64,000 nt of DNA from assembly GCA_013265495.1 (NCBI GenBank), contig MU057651.1, positions 879,674 to 943,673 on the forward strand. Direction: 5' to 3'. Both the position numbers and the translations under genes were made by a program. This DNA is from Vicugna vicugna. Lineage: Eukaryota. Under the pieces are notes generated by a model, which had not been told where the DNA came from, searched no databases, and saw only the letters and a list, made by a program, of their open reading frames with translations. The stretch's first letter is position 1; every line of letters starts with the position of its first letter. Positions 6,290-62,849 of the stretch are shown here, piece by piece.

Positions 6290-8155
6290 CTTTCCTAACA
6301 GCATAAAACATGTTATTTCTCCCATCTTTAAACAAAAATCCTCTTCATGACTTCACTTCCCCCTCCAGCTAAGGCTCTGTTTTGTCTTTTTCTTTCCTCT
6401 TATAGAAAAACTCCTTGGAAAGGATTGTCTATACTCTCAGTCCCCCATTTTCTTCCTCCTATTGTCTCTTGTGCCCATTCTAATAAGACATTGTCTCCCA
6501 CAGTCAGTGGCTCTGATCAAGATCATCTACTGGTGATGTCACTCATCAATGTTACTAAATCCAAAGTTTAATTCTCACTTCTCATCTTTTTCCCCTCCGT
6601 GGACATGAGTTTATTAGAGGAGTCAGGACAGATCTCAGTTCTCATCTTACTTGACCCACATTTTTTCACAGCTGGTCACTCACTCTTCCTTGAAATACTT
6701 TCCTCACTTGGCTTTGAGGATGCTACACTCCTTTATCCTCTTACATCTATGGCCACTTCTTCTCAGTCTCCTTTGTGGGCTTCTCTTCATCTTCCTGTCC
6801 TCCAAATATTGGAGTGACCAGGGCTCAGTCCTAGTACCTCTTCTTATCTCTATCTATCTCATTCCTTAGAGCATCTCATTCAGGCTATTAATTTTATATA
6901 CAATCAGTGCAGTGATGACTCCAATTACCTATTTGACCCACACTTAGATGTCAGATAGGTATTTAAACTGAACATGTCCACACTCAGTTCCTGATCTTCC
7001 TCTTCCAAGCCTGCTCCTACTGTTGTCTTTCACATCTCAATAAATGACAACTCTTTATTCCTTCTGCTAAGATCCAAAACCTTGGGCTTATATCTAATAT
7101 CTGATCTATCAGAAAATTATGTTGGGAGTTTGAGGTTTGCATTGGGAGTTTGAGATTTGCAAAGGTTAACCACTATACAAAAAATAGATAAAAAAAACAA
7201 ATTTCTTCTTTATAGCACAGGGAACAATATTCAATATCTTGTAATAATTTGTAATGAAAAAATATGAAAATGAATATATGTACATATATGCATGACTGGG
7301 ATATTGTGCTGTATACCAGAAATTGACATGTTGTAACTGACTATACTTCAATTAGAAAAAAGAAAATTATGTCCACTCTATCTTCAAAGCTGACTGAGAT
7401 CTGACCACTTCTTACCACTCTGCCACCCTGGCCCAAGTCACCATCCTATCTTTCATGGATTATTATAGTAGGCTTCTAACTGATGTTCTTGCTTCTGCCT
7501 TGACCCACCATAAGTATATCCTCAACATAAGAGCCATAGTGATCCTATGAAGATACCAGTCAGATGACACTCCTATGCTCAAAATCCTTCAACAGTTCCC
7601 CATCTCCCTCAGAGTTAAAACCAACATCCTAATCATGACCTTCAAATCCTTACATGATCTGGCCCTGTTCCCTCTCTGACCTCATCTCCCTACCACTCTC
7701 CCCCTCATTCTATCCTCTCCAGCCACACTAAAATCCTTACTGTTCCTTGACCACACCAGGCATTGCCCTTCCTTAGAGCCTTTGAACTTCTCTGTTCCTT
7801 CTTCTTGGAATAGTTTCTCCCAGATATCCACATGTCTCACTTCCTTGGCCTCTTTCAAATGTCACCTTCTCAATAAGGTCACCTTATCCCAGAATTGCAA
7901 ACCCCACCCTCATCCTCATCACATACATTCCCTATCTCCTTCTCTGCTTAATCTAATATAGTATATATCGCAATCTAACATGGTACATATTTTGCTTATT
8001 TATCTTGTCTACTATTTGGCTGCCCACACTCACTAAAATGTGTACTCCACAAAGGTAGAGATTTTGTTTGTTAACTGACATTCTCCAGAGCCTATAACAA
8101 TGCTTGGCACATAGCTGGAGCCTAAAGATACTTACTGACAGGATGAATGATTGAA
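6290..8155 (+). mobile_element. L2 LINE, ~1.6 kb of RT region and 3' end, with two later insertions
   Basis: ORF 6599-6817 SVLILLD...HSLFLEILSSLGF matches L2 RT ([28 protein letters not shown]); 3' end tgcttggcacatag...gatgaatga. Confidence 0.85.
7123..7360 (+). mobile_element. 5'-truncated cetartiodactyl-type L1 3'UTR with TSD
   Basis: tatagcacagggaacaatattcaatatcttgtaata...actatacttcaatt plus A tail; TSD agaaaattatgt at 7111-7122 and 7361-7372. Confidence 0.85.
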
Positions 8156-8809: not shown

Positions 8810-9559
8810 TTTATAGTAGATGTTTTAATTTTCTTCTACACTGTTGGTTGGAATGTAGTTTGGTGCAGTCATTATGGAAAACCGTATGGAGATTCTTCAA
8901 AAAAGTGAAAATAGACTTACCCTATGATTCAGCAATCCCATTCCTGGTCATACATCTGGAGGAAACTCTAATTCAAAAAGATATATGTACCCCAATGTTC
9001 ATAGCAACACTATTTACAATAGCCAAGACAAGGAAGCAACCTAAATGTCCACTGACAGATGCCTGGATAAAGAAGATGTGTTATGTATATACAATGGAAT
9101 ACTACTCATCCATAAAAAAGAATAAAATCATACCATTTGCAGCAACGTGGATGGACCTGGAGATCATCATACTAAGTGAAGTAAGCCAGAAAGAGAAAGA
9201 AAAAAATACCAAATGATATCACTTTTATGTGGAATTTAAAAACAAACGAACAAACAAAATGGGACAAATGAACTTATTTACAAAACAGAGACAGACTCAC
9301 AGACATAGAAAACAAACTTATGGTAACAGTGGGGACAGAGAGTGAGGGGGGATAAATTAGGAGTTCGGGATCTGCAGATACTAACTACTACATATAAAAT
9401 AGATAAACAAGGCCCTACTGTATAGCACAGGGAACCATATTCAATACCTTGTAATAACTTATAATGAAAAAGAATATGTATAAATGAATCATTATGCTGC
9501 ACACCAGAAATTAACACAATGTTGTAAATCAACTATATTTCAATAAAAAATACTTTAAA
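8810..9559 (+). mobile_element. 5'-truncated L1 (ORF2 C-terminus and 3'UTR) with 16-bp TSD
   Basis: ORF 8806-9216 [22 protein letters not shown]...PMFIATLFTIAK...TMEYYSSIKKN is the L1 ORF2p C-terminus; TSD aaagaagaaaaagtgt at 8794-8809 and 9560-9575. Confidence 0.92.
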
Positions 9560-9689
9560 AAAGAAGAAAAAGTGTGCTTTTCAAATGTGAAGAAACAAAA
9601 TAGTCAAGGTGGCTCAAAACCATTAAGATAATGGGTCTTAATTTAGATGTCCAGTCAAGTTCTTTGACATCATATACAAAGTAGTAAAC

Positions 9690-11212: not shown

Positions 11213-11277
11213 AATTAGCAATAAAATTGCACCTCGGATAAACCTCATTGGCTATGATACTGTCACTGTGCAAAGTT
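11213..11277 (-). pseudogene. RNU4: U4 snRNA 5' fragment (3'-truncated retropseudogene, ~65 nt)
   Basis: Minus strand AACTTTGCACAGTGACAGTATCATAGCCAATGAGGTTTATCCGAGGTGCAATTTTATTGCTAATT vs U4 AGCTTTGCGCAGTGGCAGTATCGTAGCCAATGAGGTTTATCCGAGGCGCGATTATTGCTAATT; most substitutions are CpG transitions; followed by an A-rich tail. Confidence 0.92.
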
Positions 11278-11279
11278 TA

Positions 11280-11468
11280 TTTTTTTAATTGAAGTATAGT
11301 TGATTTACAATGTTGTGTTAGTTCTGGTGTACAGCATAGTGATTCAGTTATACATATATATATATTCTTTTTCATTATAGGTTATTACAAGATACTGAAT
11401 GTAGTTCCCTGTGCTATACAGTAGGACCTTGTTGTTTATTTTATATATAGTATCTGCAAATCTCAATG
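11280..11468 (-). mobile_element. Short L1 3'UTR fragment
   Basis: ttgaagtatagttgatttacaatgttgtg...gttccctgtgctatacagtaggacc; same family as 9350-9550. Confidence 0.85.
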
Positions 11469-11940: not shown

Positions 11941-13633
11941 CTTAAAATAACGTGTTTAAATTACTGTAGTTTTAAAAGGTACAGTAACAATGAAATTAAC
12001 CTGCAGTATGTCTCACCCAGAAGAATATGTGTTTTTAAATCAGTATCAGCATATTTCTACCTTTTCGTCTACTTTTTTGGTAACTCCCACATTGGGGGAT
12101 GAGGTGAATAAAAAATGGTATCCCCAAATAATTTTCAGTCTTTCTCCTTTAAAACACCTGTCACAGATGCCAGCAAATGCTTCTTGGAGCTATAAGCACA
12201 TGGCATCAGTCTGAAGAATAAGCTTTGTATTGACATTGGAAGTGAAATTAAAGGAGTAGAGATCAGCAGCTGGCTACCCACTGTCTAAAGAAAATAAACA
12301 GTGACTACCACTCACTCCCTTCCTCAAACAAGCTGCGCGATCTTTTTCCTAAATTAAAGTTCATAAGCCATAGACTGAAGGAAAGAAGATCTTCAGAGCA
12401 AACCCCATCTTTAAATAATTTTGTCAACCATATAAACCACCTTCCTCCTTCTTATAAACACACTTCACACCCAGAATCTCCAGTAAAATTCTTCCTTTCC
12501 AGCATTTTGCCTCTAAGTGGCACTTGTCAGTATCATGACGTACTTAATTGTGACAGAGAAAGAGAAATATGCTAAGAAATCTAGATTGGGTTGCGTTGGC
12601 ACTAATGATGGTGTAACTTTAGCAGAGTCAATGTTCTTTAGTAAATGGGAAGATAATCTACAACATGACTAAAGGATATTAATGGTAATGCTGAGCTAGG
12701 AACCACATTCTTTCTTAAATTTTCTCCACTCCACCTATCCTGACTTCTGAGCAAAACTGTCAAGAGAAAGAGGAGGAGAAAATAGTCTAAGTGATATACT
12801 GTATTTACTATAAAGGCTATGTTCCTACAAAGCAAATTCTTTGAGATGCTCTTTCAGTACCCAGGCTCAGCTGCAAGGAACCATCCCCACTTTCCTCTAC
12901 CCCTCACACTGTTCCTTCTGACCAAGGAATGCCATACTTAGGGTTTGATTAGGTAAAAAGCCTTTGAGTTTGTACCTACATAATGTTTTTATATATTAAC
13001 CAATGTTGTATTTTCCTTCCGGGAGTTTCCTGTTGTTCCATTACTGTTCTTCAATTCAGGCTGATCCCCTTAGTATCAGTATCTGTTGCCTCAGAGTAGG
13101 GACATCACAGCATAAATAATGGGAGAAAGAAAAGAGTCAATTGTTGGCTCTTAAAATTCACACAGAAACAAACCAAATGCCCATCCAATGTGAACTTAGT
13201 TGAGTAAGCTGTGATATCTTCACCTGATGGAACATGTACTGCCATCAAAATAAATGATCTAGAGTGATGCACAACAATGTTGATGAAGTTAGCAATATGA
13301 TATACTATGTGAAAAAAATGAAGTCCAAAAAGATTTTTCATAAGACATGATACCCCTTTAATAGAATTAAAAACCATGATTTTAAAAATTAAGTACTTTC
13401 TGTAAGACATGAAAATGTATTAAAATTACATCAAAAAAGAAAGCAAAAGCATGATAAGCATGGGATTCAGGATAATGGTTACATCAGGGACGGCTGGCAG
13501 GGGAAGCAGGGCTATGATGGGGCTAGGACACACGGTGAGATGTAGGTAAGCTATTATTAAGGTTTTAAATTTCTAGATTTTGTTTTGAGTAGGGGTGTTT
13601 TGGGTGTGTTACAATTATTAAAAATAAATAACT

Positions 13634-13773
13634 ATAGCACAGGGAACTAGATTCAATATCTTATAGTGACCTATAATGAAAAGGAATATATGTATGTATA
13701 TGTAAGACTGAAACATTATGCTGTATACCGGAAATTGATACAACATTGTAAACTGACCATACTTCAATAAAAA
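13634..13773 (+). mobile_element. Short L1 3'UTR fragment in the tail of an older L1ME-like remnant (~13160-13620)
   Basis: tatagcacagggaactagattcaatatc...acttcaataaaaaaaa; flanked by aaataact at 13626-13633 and 13774-13781. Confidence 0.8.
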
Positions 13774-13899
13774 AAATAACTCAAGTCAAAGAGGGCCATA
13801 TGTGGAACAATGATGAGGTGTCTCTTGAAGCAAAGATAATGATGAATCCATTTTAATATTAAATAGCAACAAATAAACTCATAGCAGAGAGAATCATTT

Positions 13900-14890: not shown

Positions 14891-15651
14891 TTTATTTATT
14901 TGGTGATTTTATTTATTTATTTATTTATTTATTTAGGTATAGTAAGTTTACAATGTGTCAATTTCTGGTGTCAGCATAATTCTTCACTCATACATGAATA
15001 TATATATATATACTAATTTTCATATTTTTTTCACTATAAGCTACTATAAGATATCAAATATATTTCCCTGTGCTTTACAGTATAAATTTGTTTATCTATT
15101 TTATATACCAGTCAGTATCTGCAAATATTGAACTCCCAGTTCATCCCTTCCCACATCCTCCCCTCTGGCAACCACAAGTCTTATTCTATGTCTGTGAGTC
15201 TGTTTCTGTTTCATATATAAGTTCATTTGTCTATTTTTTTTAGATTCCACATATGAGTGATGTCATATGGTATTTTTCTTTCTCCTTCTGGCTTACTTCA
15301 CTTAGAATGACATTCTCCAGGGACATCCATGTTGCTGCAAATGGCATTATTTTATTATTTTTTATGGCTGAGTAGTTATTCCATTGTATAAATATACCAC
15401 AACTTCTTTATCCAGTAATCTGTTGATGGGCATTTAGGTTGTTTCCATGTCTTGGCTATTGTAAATAGTGTTGCTATGAGCATTGGGGTGCAGGTGTCTT
15501 TTTGAATTAGGGTTCCTTCTAGATATATGTCCAGGAGCGGGATTGCTGGGTCGTATGGTAAGTCTATTTTCAGTCTTTTGCGGAATCTCCATATTGTTTT
15601 CCACAATGGCTGCACCAAACTGCATTCCCACCAATAGTGAGGAGGGTTCCC
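14891..15651 (-). mobile_element. 5'-truncated young L1 (ORF2 C-terminus and 3'UTR) with 15-bp TSD
   Basis: ORF 15376-15657 [17 protein letters not shown]...[13 protein letters not shown]...; (TTTA)n tail; TSD tttcactaactttta at 14876-14890 and 15652-15666. Confidence 0.92.
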
Positions 15652-16209
15652 TTTCACTAACTTTTAATATGAAGGTAATTTTTATTTTCTTTTAAGAAGT
15701 AGACAGCCAAACTGAGTCTGTAGAGGGTCTTTATCCAGATCTATAGCCTGTCACTCAGATGACCAGAAACAGCTGAGATGTTCATATTTAACCATGAATA
15801 AGCAGCAGGATTCCTCTGCAGAGCTAAATACAGTCAATTTTTGTTATTTTTCTAAATATTATTGGCTTGGCTGTCTCTGCTTGAGAATGGTTTCGTGGGT
15901 CATGAATATAATCAGACAGCTCTCTTCTTCTAATCCAACCTCTAAAGAGAGAAGGTGGGTCTATTTGTTTTTTCAGGAGTCAGTGTATAATTTTTTACTC
16001 CCTGCCTATTCTATTTATTTGCCTGTGAAACACCATGAAAATGGGGAGGTGGTGAGTGAGGAATCTGGGGATGGGGGCACCAGGGGCTTCACTATCAGAG
16101 AGTGTGGGGAAAAGGAAAATAGAGGCAGCGGTGCATACCAAGACATGTGTAGACACATAGCCTACAGACCTGAACACAGGGCACCATGGGGGATTGTGGG
16201 ATGGGTGGG

Positions 16210-23304: not shown

Positions 23305-23815
23305 CATTTCTGCCACTTTTGACAACACGGATGGACCTTGAGGACATTATGCTAAGTGAAATAAGTCAGAGAAAGACAAATACTGTCTGATCTCACTTAT
23401 ATGTAGAATCTTTAAAAAAAAATCAGGCTTGGAAACAGAAAGTAGAATGGTAGTTGCCAGGAGCTGGAGGATGATACGGAAGGAAATGGTTAAGATGTTG
23501 GTCAAAGGGTACCAACTTCCAGTTATAAGATAAATAAGTTTTGAAGATCTAATGCACAGGATGATGACAATAGTTAGCATATAGTTAAGTATATAATATA
23601 ATCATATTATATACTTAAAAATTACTAAGAGAGTAGATCTTAAATGTTCTCACCTCAAAGAAATGTAATTACATGAGGTGATGAATGTGTTAACTAACAT
23701 TATTGTGGTAATCATTTCATAATATATGCATATATCAAATCATCATGTTGTACATCTTAAACTCATACAATGTTTAATGTCAATTATATCTCAATAAAGC
23801 TGGAAAAGATTAATA
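23305..23815 (+). mobile_element. L1MA9-like 3' end
   Basis: acaacacggatggaccttgaggacattatgctaagtgaaataagtcaga...gtcaattatatctcaataaagctgg. Confidence 0.85.
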
Positions 23816-27559: not shown

Positions 27560-28800
27560 TGCGATGTGGACTTGGGAAACGCCCCGAAATGATAAGCATC
27601 CTGCTAGGGCATAATTTTCGAGACCAGCTCATCCTGCGTCCCGCGCACCAGCTCAGTACTGGACCAGGTGCACGCAGAGAGGCCGTTGTGCGGGAGGAGA
27701 GGGGTCGCAGGCTTTCGGCTGGGAAGTTGGAAGGTAGCCGGGGTCTTCAGACCGCCGGTGCGAGCGGTGGGGAGCTCCTAGGTGCACCCAGCGCCGAGGG
27801 GGAGGAGGGGCGGGAGGAGATGTGCGGTCCCTTTAAGACCCCAACGCTCGCTTCGCCGGAGGAGGGGGGTGCCGTGGGGGCGCTGCGTGATGGGAAAGTC
27901 GCCGGCTGAGCCTCACACTTTCTCCCGATTTCTTAACTTTCGGGTTGGGGGAGCGGGAGTAAAGGCCGACTTGCTGGGGCGGAGAGGGGCTGCCGGCTTG
28001 CAGCGGCTGCGTGCTCGCGGACTTCCCGCCCGCGCCGAGCGGCCGGCCTCTCCGGCCAAGTGGGGAGCGGGCGGCGGGCGGGCAGGTGGCCCCGGGCCGC
28101 CGCGCCCGCGCCTTGGCTCTGCCCCCGGGAGCCGAGCGAGCCGCTGCTCCCTCGTGGTGTGAGGGCGGTGATGTTTTTCCTCCCACCCACTTTTGAGTCC
28201 CCCCTCCTCCCTCGCGCACTCTAGCTCTCGCCACAACCTGCGAGCCCCAGACCTCGGAGGAGCGCCCCGGGGAGCTCCGAGCGCTTGCACGCGTGGAAGA
28301 CGGAGAAGGCCAGTGGCCAGGTCAGTGAGCAGTGCCCGGCGCCCGCTTCCCCTCCCTCCCTTTCCAGCCGTTGCACAGGTGGGCTATCTCCCCCCAGGGC
28401 AACCCGGACTCCCCACTCTGCCACCCCAACCCGCTCTACCGTCCGGGGCGCCGGACCCCCAGGCAGGTCGGGGTTGGGGGAGGGCTTGGATTCGAACTCA
28501 CCACTCGCCACTCCCGCTCGGCCTGCATATCTCCAGTCTCTGAAGCTGCTGGGAGGCCACTTGGGTAACTACCTAACGGGTTCTGCAGTCGCCTTAGTAA
28601 TCGTGTGTCCTGAGCCCTTTTCCTCGCTTGCTGAAGTGCCCTGGACCAGTGGGTGGTTCGTAAGTGCAAAAGTTAACGAAACAGGGCGGACAAGCGAGAG
28701 GCTCCTCTCTCCGCTGGACATGTCTCATTTTCCGGTCAGGACCACTGGGGTCAGAGTTGGAGACGCTAGGCTTAGGGAGTAACGCAGTATCGCCAGAACT
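27560..28800 (+). promoter_or_regulatory. CHRDL1: CpG island / CHRDL1 promoter
   Basis: Sharp switch to GC-rich, CpG-dense, repeat-free sequence with GC boxes (gggcgg) in an otherwise CpG-depleted window, 3.6 kb upstream of the first coding exon. Confidence 0.88.
28200..28320 (+). other. CHRDL1: CHRDL1 exon 1 (5'UTR; start approximate)
   Basis: Donor CAG|GTCAGT at 28320/28321 inside the CpG island; ...gacggagaaggccagtggccag resembles the recalled CHRDL1 5'UTR; TSS cannot be fixed from sequence. Confidence 0.7.
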
Positions 28801-51089: not shown

Positions 51090-51202
51090 ATTCAGAGACA
51101 TATTGTGTGTTCCAAGACAAGAAGTACAGAGTGGGTGAGAGATGGCATCCTTACCTGGAACCTTATGGGTTGGTTTACTGTGTGAACTGCATCTGCTCAG
51201 AG
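51090..51202 (+). CDS. CHRDL1: Chordin-like 1, second coding exon (first half of VWC domain 1)
   Basis: Acceptor tcttcttcctcatag|; (H)[37 protein letters not shown]; 113 nt, phase 1 to 0; donor GAG|GTACAA. Confidence 0.97.
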
Positions 51203-53805: not shown

Positions 53806-53899
53806 AATGGGAATGTGCTTTGCAGCCGAGTCAGATGTCCAAGCCTTCATTGCGTCTCTCCCGTGCATATTCCTCACCTTTGCTGCCCTCGCTGCCCAG
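53806..53899 (+). CDS. CHRDL1: Chordin-like 1, third coding exon (second half of VWC domain 1); gene continues beyond the window
   Basis: Acceptor cctcctctctttcag|; [31 protein letters not shown] plus 1 nt (94 nt), ending in the VWC CCPxC motif; donor CAG|GTAAAC. Confidence 0.97.
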
Positions 53900-54885: not shown

Positions 54886-55719
54886 CCATAGCAAAAATGA
54901 TGCTTTTTTAAAGTAGTGAGGAACTTAAATAGAGAAAGCAAAAGTATCAGGGCAAAAATGGTAGGAATGGGGTAAGAACGAGGTTCAGTAAACACGTAGT
55001 TAACTGAAATGTTACAGGAATGGAGATTTTGTTTAATGGAGAAAAAACCCCCAAACCCTTTCTGTCACCACCTTTATAATGTATACTATCCTACATTGGT
55101 AAATACACTCTGATGGACATCTGGGATTCTTTCCCAGATGGCAGAGGGTCATGCCATGTAACAGGCTTATCATTCTGAGTATTGGTGACAATAGTATATG
55201 CTTCAAGATATGAGAGACTGATTGGCAAATGATCAGCCTAAAAGTTGATTTTGGAATAAATCCCTAAATGAGGTTTACAGTTGTTGTATGTGTTTATTTG
55301 CTTCTATTTAAACTGGATTACAAGGGTTTAGTATGGGACTTTACAAAGAAATCTACTACGTTACCTGTCAAATACTTTATAAAAGCTTTTCCCCCAAGAA
55401 GTCTCTAGAAGTGGTCTAATGTCATAGGAGTTTATCTAAATTGCTGTGTAGAGATTGTTCTTCCCTGGGAATGAGGTTGGGGCAGCTGCCTAACAGGAAG
55501 CAAGTACTGAGAAGAAGGAAAAGTATAAGCTAGCAGTTCTTTTGAGAGAAAAAGAAAGTATCAAAGAATTGAGGTCATAAATCCCAGAAAAGAGAAAATG
55601 GAAAGAAATAAACACCATTATCTTTTAAGACTTAAAAAGTCCATTTTGTGGAGTATAGAAACCAGCGGTTTGTTTCCTTTGCCCCCTTGTCCTTGTGGGT
55701 CACTTCCTTGTGAGTTCAT

Positions 55720-56495
55720 TTTTCTTTTTCTTTTCTTTTTTTCTAGTTGAAGTATAGTCAGTTTACAATGTTGTGTCTATTTCTGGTGTATAGCACAATG
55801 CTTCAGTCATATGTGAACATACATATATTCGTTTTCATATTATTTTTCACCATGAGCTACTACAAGTTATCGAATATAGTTCCCTGTGTGATACAGTATA
55901 AACTTGTTTATCTATTTTATATGTACCAGTCAGTATCTGCAAATCTCAAACTCCCAATTTATCCCTTACCATCCCCTTTCCCCCTGGTAACCATAAATTT
56001 GTTTTCTATGTCTGTGAGTCTGTTTGTTTTATATTATAAGTTCATTTGTCTTTTTTTTTTTAGATTCCACGTATGAGTGATATCATATGGTATTCTTCTT
56101 TCTCCTTCTGGCTTCACTTTGAATGACATTCTCCAGGGCCATCCATGTTGCTGCAAATGGCATTATTTTATTATTTTTTATGACTGGGTAGTATTCCATT
56201 GTATACCACAGCTTCTTTATCCAGTCATCTGTTAATGGACATCTAGGTTGTTTCCATGTCTTGGCTATTGTAAATAGTGCTGCTATGAACATTGGGGTGC
56301 AGGTGTCTTTTTGGATTAAGGTTCCCTCTGGATATATGCCCAGGAGTGGGATTCCTGGATCATATAGTAAGTCTATTTTTAGTTTTTGAGGAACTTTCAT
56401 ACTGTTTTCTATAATGGCTGCACCAAACTACATTCCCACTAACAGTGTAGGCGGGTTACCTTTTCTCCACTCCGTCTCTAGCATTTGTCGTTTGC
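55720..56495 (-). mobile_element. 5'-truncated young L1 (ORF2 C-terminus and 3'UTR)
   Basis: ORF 56083-56400 [19 protein letters not shown]...[17 protein letters not shown]...; very similar to the copy at 14891-15651. Confidence 0.92.
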
Positions 56496-56519: not shown

Positions 56520-58045
56520 TAACAATTCTTTCTGTGATACTAAACAGAACTAACAGTTCAGTGGTACTAAAGTTCCTTCATCCTTATATGCAGAAAATGT
56601 GTTTATTTTGCCCTCATTCTTGAGTGATAATTTGGCTGGGTATAAAACTATAGGTGCCCATTTATTTTCCTTCAGCACTTAGAAGATATTAATAAATGGT
56701 TTCTTGATGTCTTTGTGGATAAGAAGTCTCCTCTTTGATTATAGTTCTTTTGTAGGTAATCTGTTTTCTCCTTCTTCTAGCTTTTAAGATTTTCTCTTTT
56801 TCTTTGATACACACAGTGAGGCATGTAGATGTGTGATTCATTTTTATTTAGCCTCCTCAGCACATGACTTCTTTTTGGCCAAAGGACTCAAATTTCTCTT
56901 CAATTTTAAGTCATTACTTTTGTGAAAATTACCCCTTCTTCTTTTTTCTAATTCTTAACCTTGTCTTTGGTGTATGTTGTTGCAGCTCATTTAATTGACA
57001 TTCTGTGTCTCTTAATGTCTCCTCTATTTTTTCCCCCATGATGATATATTGGTATATTCCTTGTAATAGTACATTACTTCAGTTCTGTCCTCCAATTCAT
57101 GAATTCTTTCTCCATCTCTTTCATGCCTACTATTTAGGCTCTCTGTTAGGTTTTATTTATGGTTTTATTTTTAATAACTGTGTTTTCCCCAATTTTTTAA
57201 ATTAGGTTTAAAAATATTTACATGTTGCTACTTTATAAACCCCTGTTATTGTTTCTTGGGGTCTTATTCTCTTACTTATTTCTTTAAGGTATTTAAATAT
57301 TTAAAGTCCATTTCTGATTGCTCAAATATCCATATGTTTTTCAGGTGTGAATTCTCACTTTTGGTGGGTTTCTTAATAGCTTTTCTTAGTTCTGGATTCC
57401 CCCTTGTTTTCTAAAATTGTTGTTTAAGATCTCATCAGCTGTGGGGGTTTTCTCTTGCATAAGCCTTTCTTTTCTTGTGCTAGCATTATTTCAGGCCTTG
57501 TAGTTCACTTAGCTCTAAACCAGACCATATATTGGTGTCCCACCTTGGGCTCCCTCATGCTTAGATGGTCTATTTTTACCTCTATTTTCTTGTGCAGTGC
57601 TAGCCCCTGATAATGATCTTGGATTGGGACCTCAGCTATAGCTGCCTACCTTGGGCAATCAAACCATTTGAGGAAACAACCTTGGGTGGGCAGAGCTGTG
57701 TCAACCCCTATTGACATGTGAGAAGTGTGACCGTACTCCCCAGCTTTATACAGAAAGCCACTTAGCGGCCATAGTTCTTGCTCAGCGGTCTGGCCCCAGC
57801 TGTCTATATCCAGTCCCAGTTGCCAATGGACCATATGTCTTTGTCCCCCCATTTATTTGTGTACTTTCCTCTGTGTTTTATTTCATAGAGAGTTTCCTTT
57901 TGTTTCTGAGAATGATTTTTGCAGTTTTAAAGCCTGGTTATTTATTTATTTATCTGTAGTTTTATATTTCACATATTACTCTTCTTTGTTTGGAAAATAA
58001 CAGGGAGTTTTCTCATGTGCTGTCTCTGCCATATTGAACTGGAAT
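56520..58045 (-). mobile_element. HAL1 / L1 ORF1-only element, degenerate
   Basis: ctcattcttgagtgataatttggctgggtataaaa, ttctagcttttaagatttttctc; 5' end (minus) ttccagttcaatatggcagag. Confidence 0.6.
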
Positions 58046-59425: not shown

Positions 59426-59567
59426 ATGAATTCTTCCTCTATCCCTTTCATGCCTACTATTTAGGCTATCTTTTGGGTTTTATTTATTGTTTTATTTTTA
59501 ATAACTATATTTTCCCCAGTTTTTTGAATTAGGTTTAAAAATATTTACATGTTGCTATCTTATAAAC
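59426..59567 (+). repeat. Dispersed direct copy of 57099-57240 (142 bp)
   Basis: Ungapped manual alignment, 13 mismatches in 142 nt. Confidence 0.95.
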
Positions 59568-61270: not shown

Positions 61271-61769
61271 TGAAATATTAAAGCCATCTCACTTTTCACT
61301 TTATCTCTTTGAGTATCTGCTGCCATCCTCAGGCTTGCTGCTGTTGCTATCATCCATGTCAGCTCTCCATTGCTCTCTGCATTTCTCCTTTTGTTCTTTT
61401 CTGAATTCTGTATTCACTTGCCTCTTGGATCTTATTGAAAAAGATCAATTCCTTTTAAATAGTAACAGTAGTTAGCATATTCTTTTCCTCCACTAAGGGA
61501 ACTACGAAAGCCGTAGTTTACAAGGGCTGTTTCTTTGCCTGGAAAAGATTGGTATATAGAAAAAACAAAACAAAAGCAAAAAACAAACAAACAAACAAAA
61601 AACCCCAAAAAGCCTCTGAGTCCAGAGCTATCCAAAAGCATGAGGATTCTGGAATGCTGATCTCTAGATAACAGAGGTTTTACTTAATTATCATTGTTAT
61701 CATTGTTAGGTTTCTTATACTGATTGTTGACAGGTCACCATAGAGATGTTCACTATTGATCAGTATGTT

Positions 61770-62347
61770 TTTTTTTAATGTAAGTAAGGAAAGTCTTTAA
61801 TTTTTTCTGTTTTCTTTTTCTTTTTTTCTCTTTTTTAAATATTTAACAAATGCTTTACTGTGAAAGTAGCTTTCTCGATGTCCATAATACAGAAACACTT
61901 TCACAATCCAATAAACAACTCGAAAAGTTTTACAGCACAAGAGTAAATGTAAGTTTCCAATTTGAATGAGGTCTAAAATACACAAATCAGGACGCTGATC
62001 ATACAAAAGGATAATATTCAAAGGAAGCTCACAGTTCAGAATCATCCTACTGTCTTTGTGGAAAACCCACAGCAAATTTTTTTGTAATAATTGGGTATAA
62101 CAGTATTATAATTCTAATGAACAAGTTAAATCAGGGATCTCTAAATTTTGGAATCACACTGTTAATCAACTACAAACAAATATTAGCCCACATCTATCAC
62201 CAATGACTCAGATGTTTCTTTCTAATGAATTGACCGTTACATTTCCAAAGTTCTTAAATGGCCATCAGACCACAGAAAGACACTTCTCTAGGCTCCTGCT
62301 TGAAACCAACAGCTTCAGCAGACTGCTGGCCTTGATTCAGGACCAAA
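61770..62347 (-). pseudogene. snoRNA retroposon: SNORA2B-like RNA, 3' trailer and poly(A), with 16-bp TSD
   Basis: Perfect direct repeat tattgatcagtatgtt at 61754-61769 and 62348-62363; T-tract (minus-strand poly(A)) at the left end; snoRNA begins 1 nt inside the right TSD. Confidence 0.9.
62210..62346 (-). ncRNA. SNORA2B: Box H/ACA snoRNA copy, SNORA2 (ACA2) family, most like SNORA2B
   Basis: Minus strand TTGGTCCTGAATCAAGGCCAGCAGTCTGCTGAAGCTGTTGGTTTCAAGCAGGAGCCTAGAGAAGTGTCTTTCTGTGGTCTGATGGCCATTTAAGAACTTTGGAAATGTAACGGTCAATTCATTAGAAAGAAACATCT (137 nt); two hairpins, H box AGAGAA (62289-62284), ACA (62215-62213) 3 nt from the end; closely matches recalled SNORA2B. Confidence 0.88.
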
Positions 62348-62849
62348 TATTGATCAGTATGTTGATCACTGTTCATGTCTCTACTGACTGCCTTCTTACC
62401 TCTCAGACCACTTTCACTGTCTTCCATGCTATATTTCCATTGTTTTCCTCATACACTTGGTCCTTGAACACTGTGCAGGGTATAAAGGGTTAAAACTTCT
62501 TCAGGAACGTGACATCCAACTTGCCTTCTGCCAGGTGAGGTGATCTTTGTCTCTGGTAAACCCTGGGGATTTAGCTGCTTTTTAAAAAGAATGTGATTTC
62601 CTCTTAGTATTCTAGAAGCCCTTATGCCATATAAGAACAAGACTTTTAGAAAACTGTGACTTTCTGTCATGGTAGAACAGAACTCTTCTGTTTCTTTCAA
62701 TGGACATTAATCAAACCTGGCCTCACACAAAGGTGAAGAAGGTGGCATATCCTTGAGGGATACCGAAAAGCTCCATTTGTCCCAAATAAATCTTCCATGT
62801 GCTTTCTGTATTTAAGAAACCTCCGCCATTACAATCACTCTTCTGGGTT

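Follow-up and report, generated by a model that had tools for sequence, protein, structure and literature searches.

The SNORA2 retrocopy and its surroundings

The stretch of DNA analysed here (the window, 64,000 nucleotides of Vicugna vicugna contig MU057651.1) carries two plus-strand exons of a VWC-domain gene, which we take to be CHRDL1; the VWC matches of both exons (E 0.0017 and 0.00053) fall below the curated Pfam cut-off. A CpG island at about 27600-28600 on the plus strand probably represents the promoter and first exon of this gene. On the opposite strand, 8 kb downstream of the second of the two exons, lies a small nucleolar RNA (snoRNA) retrocopy that spans 62363-61754 and was assigned to the SNORA2 family from Rfam. 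It is antisense to the VWC-domain gene and presumably intronic in it, the following exon not being seen in the window. We take the snoRNA to be the SNORA2B paralogue, and KANSL2 to be the host of SNORA2A, SNORA2B and SNORA2C. The features are, in the order of the minus strand for the retrocopy:

51090..51202, plus strand: AG/GT-bounded exon of the VWC-domain gene (E 0.0017)
53806..53899, plus strand: next exon of the same gene (E 0.00053)
62348..62363, minus strand: 5' copy of the target site duplication (TSD), 16 bp, 16/16 identical to 61769-61754
62347, minus strand: lone T separating the 5' TSD from the snoRNA, an untemplated or precursor base, read from the sequence
62210..62346, minus strand: full-length SNORA2-family H/ACA RNA with two hairpins (Rfam RF00410)
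62289-62284, minus strand: H box AGAGAA, located by reading the sequence
62215-62213, minus strand: ACA box, located by reading the sequence
61837..62209, minus strand: 373-nt trailer, putative host-intron sequence 3' of the snoRNA, common to about 8-10 loci
61926..62037, minus strand: 112-nt segment of the trailer, kept here and missing in about four paralogous loci
61859-61854, minus strand: first-tier poly(A) signal AGTAAA, 17 nt ahead of the A-rich tract
61836-61801, minus strand: A-rich tract of 36 nt, 30 of them A
61801-61796, minus strand: second-tier poly(A) signal ATTAAA, which shares its first A with the end of the tract
61777..61800, minus strand: 24-nt tag, unique within the window and also present in contig 17 of sequencing run X17
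61770..61776, minus strand: terminal tail A7 (an A9 at 61776-61768 if the first two TSD bases are included)
61754..61769, minus strand: 3' copy of the TSD, a 100% match to the 5' copy

The snoRNA is well preserved. Its match to the RF00410 covariance model scores 146.8 bits against a gathering score of 70 and covers model positions 1-137 of 137, and SNORA2 is the sole Rfam family detected within the window. The copy folds into two hairpins (z -2.47), a fold equalled by 5 of 200 shuffled sequences. A gapless comparison by eye with the rhesus SNORA2 sequence printed in PMC2832892 revealed differences at 12 of 137 letters. The trailer that follows would derive from the host intron downstream of the parental snoRNA.

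The original prediction had described, on the minus strand, an AGTAAA, 17 nt, a decayed A-tract of about 36 nt, an ATTAAA, 19 nt, a clean A9 and the TSD. All of these positions hold, including the 19-nt spacer between ATTAAA (61801-61796) and the A9, except that the last two A residues of the A9 belong to the TSD. "Decayed" is apt for the tract, yet provides no date. A third ATTAAA, at 61779, overlaps the start of the terminal tail. The tract may represent a first-generation tail, its distal part possibly being the A-rich TSD of an intermediate copy, and the 24-nt tag would then be transduced flanking sequence of the source locus.

Several features are those of an L1-mobilised snoRNA retroposon. 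The 5' end is that of the mature snoRNA with one extra T, where type 2 snoRNA retroposons (snoRT) have 0-10 extra bases, and the A7 tail and 16/16 TSD agree with their A-rich tail and 7-19 bp duplication. The L1 endonuclease site reads tcAACA and differs from ttAAAA at two of six positions; the match is weak, and one or two substitutions were tolerated by Luo and Li (PMC1802619). The element would thus be a retroposon of the kind described by Weber, of type 2 provided that the trailer holds intron only. The empty target site (62375-62348, 61769-61740) is itself semi-palindromic and contains the palindrome TGATCA twice, at a spacing of 13 nt.

Other repeats occur in the window. There are many 5'-truncated L1 3' ends (7141-7366, 8836-9571, 11276-11466, 13633-13779, 14907-15654 and 55719-56463), presumably of cetartiodactyl type, and a 34-nt AT-rich palindrome (23585-23618) lies within an old L1 3' end. 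A 142-nt local duplication (57099-57240 and 59426-59567), 91% identical, 2.3 kb apart and located in the same intron, corresponds to no obvious known repeat. No tRNA gene was found in the window, and no young SINE appeared in its self-comparison.

Trailer paralogues in public sequencing runs

For 61500-62210, 24 public runs from organisms A to D are listed; the region is present at least in part in 20 of them and to half or more in 14. Four runs were compared over 61640-62210 at 80% likeness: X1 (organism A) and X3 (organism B), which are genome-sized DNA, and X15 and X17, which are RNA by guess only, so that expression is not claimed. The contig comparison rests on the best 30 of 77 pieces and on 40 of 110 difference rows. 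In X1 and X3 alike, three contigs extend across about 61840-62043, one identical to the window and two that are 92% and 85% alike. At four positions of the trailer the depth amounts to 7.5-12.4 single-copy equivalents, and inside the 112-nt segment to 3.1-3.6; these values are rough, overlaps inflating and the filter deflating them, and they leave aside tailless or snoRNA-only copies. The number of related trailer loci can thus be put at about 8-10. A range of 2-41 SNORA2 copies is given for 60 mammals, no camelid among them (PMC13197249), and the SNORA2-trailer family is of ordinary size, falling inside that range. The high copy number of a SINE was not found, and the description of a self-propagating, SINE-like family was overstated, since only one tagged locus is certain.

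Contigs that skip 61926-62037 occur in all four runs, and the depths of the deletion joints sum to 4.1 copies in X1 and 3.9 in X3. Splicing was considered as the origin of this skip and rejected: read by eye, neither strand offers GT-AG ends, whichever of the allowed shifts is taken, and three joint variants fit one deletion. Moreover, older copies retain the segment (X17 contig 19, 79% alike, and X3 contig 26), which together with the absence of splice sites indicates one derived deletion inherited by several loci.

Grouping was based on the depth of 26 difference rows apportioned among the listed contigs. Copies with the deletion keep the letters of older copies at 61895, 62083 and 62095. 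The undeleted, window-like group comprises X15 contigs 9, 10 and 11 and X17 contig 17. X15 contig 10 and X17 contig 17 are about 98.5% alike to the window, while contig 9 of X15 has the window's letters at 61895, 61937 and 61970 and contig 11 has them at 61986, 61999, 62083 and 62095. Two such groups could not have arisen from one linear parent, which makes a secondary source or a duplication of DNA probable and would trace the family to more than one source. The tree is not cleanly split in two, however: at 62159 and 62161 a deletion copy (X3 contig 29, X1 contig 8) has the window's letters; X15 contigs 9 and 11 were found in only one of the four runs, and contigs can be mosaics. The pattern does not indicate which group holds the parent, and a secondary source, even if real, could belong to the deletion group and not to the line of the window copy. 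Within X15, depth is 47-104 for the window-like group as against 8.55 for the deletion type, a cover that would suit the parental gene if X15 is RNA.

The tail and tag are represented more sparsely. A repeat mask covers 61800-61839 and three loose ends there were dropped, so that the sequence after the tract in other copies is unseen. No cover of 61640-61839 was obtained in either DNA run although each holds more than 80% of the words; the gap is therefore a filter effect and does not prove the absence of a second tagged locus. The sole contig to cross the tract is X17 contig 17 (253 nt, 62019-61768, gapless, four differences, 98.4%), and it places trailer, tract and tag in organism D. It stops in the terminal A-run and its last letter fails to align to the TSD, which is how an RNA with its poly(A) tail added after the tag would end. 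Its source may be the orthologue of this locus, the intermediate copy or a transcript of the parent. Metagenome contigs gave no hit to patterns from the trailer end and the snoRNA core, and viral contigs none to the snoRNA core and the tag; neither collection is mammalian, so these negatives are uninformative.

Two further departures from the trailer were observed. X17 contig 19, an old paralogue, leaves it at 61943 into A-rich letters, and X15 contig 11 ends at 61944; about 20 nt upstream of 61943 the window reads ATTCAAA, one letter off a signal. The departure suggests a further poly(A) site, about 106 nt upstream of the first tier. Loose ends at 62185 in X1, X3 and X15 mark a paralogue that departs with AT-rich letters, near-identical in the three runs, possibly an indel near the 3' end of the snoRNA.

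Possible origins of the two-tier tail

The chance occurrence of poly(A) signals was estimated at random window positions, with the signal ending 10-30 nt upstream. One of four common signals (AATAAA, ATTAAA, AGTAAA, TATAAA) precedes 6.8% of positions in this way, one of 12 hexamer variants (the list of which is our assumption) 15.8%, and AATAAA or ATTAAA 4.0%. Both tiers would arise by chance with a probability of 0.3-2.5% assuming independence; the tiers are not fully independent because the end of the A-tract helps to form ATTAAA. Among the 12 hexamers, AGTAAA alone is present in the 373-nt trailer. Tracts of at least 28 A in 36 number seven in 128 kb (both strands), the element's own included, so that equally A-rich native tracts occur about once per 21 kb (six others). 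Within the window, the tag matches only itself at up to three mismatches and has no exact match of at least 12 nt elsewhere.

The explanation preferred here, to which a probability of about 0.6 is given (a judgement and not a computed posterior, as are the gradings of all readings), is that the copy is a second-generation retrocopy carrying an ultra-short 3' transduction, and probably a grand-daughter of the host gene. This was the core of the original prediction; it is the likeliest reading on anatomy and on the two groups of paralogues, while its source locus is predicted rather than demonstrated. Two signal-spacer-tail units with canonical spacing lie inside one TSD, and tail, unique tag and tail within a single TSD pair constitute the anatomy of a 3'-transduction offspring. 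The H/ACA boxes and hairpins are intact, as renewed trimming requires. The two apparently separate groups of trailer paralogues point in the same direction.

A possible pathway begins with a host-intron RNA whose 5' end was trimmed to the H/ACA RNP. Cleavage of this RNA 17 nt past a cryptic signal, the AGTAAA, and addition of a poly(A) tail would have been followed by its retroposition to an intermediate site, S. Intronic H/ACA RNAs have no internal Pol III promoter or other promoter of their own, and S should therefore have been part of a Pol II transcript, in the sense direction. From there the 5' end could have been set again by the intact H/ACA RNP, with read-through of the weak AGTAAA. 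The ATTAAA would have been born where the old tail met the A-rich target site of S, with cleavage 19 nt further on, and the distal part of the tract would be the TSD of S itself, as in SVA elements. The last step, an L1-type insertion at the present site with A7 and a 16-bp TSD, is the only one directly visible. The present copy is probably a dead end because it is antisense to the local gene. A bolder extension, possible if on the doubtful side, is a promoter-less secondary master: a still-transcribed sense-intron SNORA2 retrocopy whose H/ACA RNP recuts the 5' end and whose target site supplied the poly(A) signal that makes the 3' end. This master and a separate deletion-bearing source would each have founded a small subfamily, a traceable early transition from snoRNA to SINE.

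The tract and tag could instead be native to the parental intron, the element being a first-generation type 2 snoRT and ATTAAA an intronic poly(A) signal of the parent; other copies would have stopped earlier through alternative sites or internal priming on the tract. Type 2 copies are indeed cut at cryptic intronic signals (Weber, PMC1687206), and window-like contigs occur in both of the runs guessed to be RNA. The strong window-like cover in X15 and the end of X17 contig 17 in an A-run after the tag fit this explanation equally well, and the exit of X17 contig 19 at 61943 suggests that the source used several 3' ends. Relative to the remaining listed contigs, window-like contigs also have 1.21-1.64 times the median depth in X1 and 1.36-1.48 times in X3. 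A near-identical source, whether the parent or another, might be concealed in this surplus, which is weak: one non-window contig in X1 reaches 1.42 as well. Moreover, the window-like contig is unbroken over 61840-62043, with no difference, in both DNA runs. A parent 2-5% divergent would share a 31-mer with probability 0.89-0.997 and would likely have broken it, barring merger by the assembler. For a native tract two things must also have coincided: the parent would have been cleaved just where such a rare A-tract stood, and an AGTAAA would have lain by chance 17 nt ahead of it (7-16%). On balance this origin seems rather unlikely.

A one-step chimera is a good deal less probable. An unrelated polyadenylated RNA would have been the first template of reverse transcription, over its last 25-30 nt, before a switch to the poly(A) of the RNA that contains snoRNA and trailer; alternatively, both RNAs would have been joined beforehand. 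ATTAAA, 19 nt and poly(A) resemble any mRNA end, there is a single TSD, and template switching has precedents for snoRNA copies (PMC1802619) and SVA (PMC12593883). The published cases have a recognisable partner stretch, whereas nothing else in the window, L1 ends included, matches the tag. The poly(A) between the two parts favours read-through, switching being inferred in the SVA paper where such a tail is missing (PMC12593883). The six non-A letters in 36 are also more than point mutation would produce at a divergence of 1.6-3.7% (p up to 0.002), a weak argument and a weak clock because tails mutate fast. Indeed, 383 of 543 young SVA tails are interrupted (PMC12593883), so that these letters do not prove the age of the tract. 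Least credible of all are two independent insertions at one site, or local DNA captured during insertion: nested insertions with target-site triplication have been reported by Weber (PMC1687206), but only two TSD copies are present here and the tag is repeated neither 5' of the element nor nearby.

The second-generation and native-tract origins differ in what the element would mean, although the general model is unchanged under either. Were the tag found in the flank of a retrocopy, a chain of parent, intermediate and offspring would be mapped for a snoRNA. If true, a promoter-less RNA could spread by borrowing a host intron, which would help to explain the range of 2-41 SNORA2 copies among 60 mammals (PMC13197249). 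A native tract would make the element a commonplace relic of polyadenylation within an intron.

Comparison with known snoRNA retroposons

Retroposition of snoRNAs is documented: type 2 snoRT were described by Weber in 2006 (PMC1687206), and snoRNA retrogenes with 3' flanks, including human ACA2c and ACA2d, by Luo and Li in 2007 (PMC1802619). The element described here shares with type 2 snoRT the mature-snoRNA 5' end, a long 3' trailer, a cryptic poly(A) signal, an A tail, a TSD of 7-19 bp and a site derived from T2A4. According to Weber (PMC1687206), transcription of snoRT depends on their insertion into a gene, and sense-intron copies are expected to retropose again; in the passages compared, such re-retroposition is a prediction only and no copy with two stacked signal-tail units is described. 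Most snoRNA retrocopies have been argued to be non-functional (PMC5967550). A literature search that covered few subscription papers found none on the SNORA2 family in this lineage, and nothing relevant on KANSL2 with SNORA2B or intronic polyadenylation, on source elements or subfamilies of snoRNA retroposons in camelids, or on retrocopies of retrocopies.

By copy number the element is not a member of a SINE family; it probably behaves as a 3'-transduction offspring. The deletion in about four loci and the shared substitutions, with one conflicting pair of sites, may reflect subfamilies from secondary sources, as in a SINE, or DNA duplication. The snoRTE of platypus, a snoRNA-headed retroposon like the present element, reportedly has an RTE-derived tail, where here there is poly(A); in the self-comparison the trailer matches no repeat of the window, and a LINE-derived tail was thus not found. 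About 40,000 copies of snoRTE (Schmitz et al. 2008, as cited in PMC2832892) compare with about ten loci here. A likeness also exists to SVA and L1 3' transductions, which combine an old tail, a short flank including the source's TSD, a new tail and one outer TSD; ultra-short transductions carrying the TSD of the source are described for SVA (PMC12593883), in which no internal promoter has been identified either. The sources of SVA are mapped whereas that of SNORA2 is a predicted one, and the 5' end is set here by the H/ACA RNP and not by a start site.

A precedent is rhesus SNORA25, whose stacked poly(A) blocks, present in 6 of 11 aligned paralogues, were attributed to several rounds of retroposition by Zhang et al. 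2010 (PMC2832892). Both cases are H/ACA retrocopies with stacked poly(A) tracts and a TSD. They differ in snoRNA and lineage, and the blocks of SNORA25 are common to several paralogues as against one certain tagged locus here. The SNORA25 case rested on alignments of paralogues, and a mapped SNORA2 chain, if true, would go beyond it. The idea of multi-round snoRNA retroposition is thus not new; the locus presents a real two-tier tail on an otherwise ordinary snoRNA retrocopy, probably of the second generation as judged from its sequence, for which SNORA25 provides the precedent.
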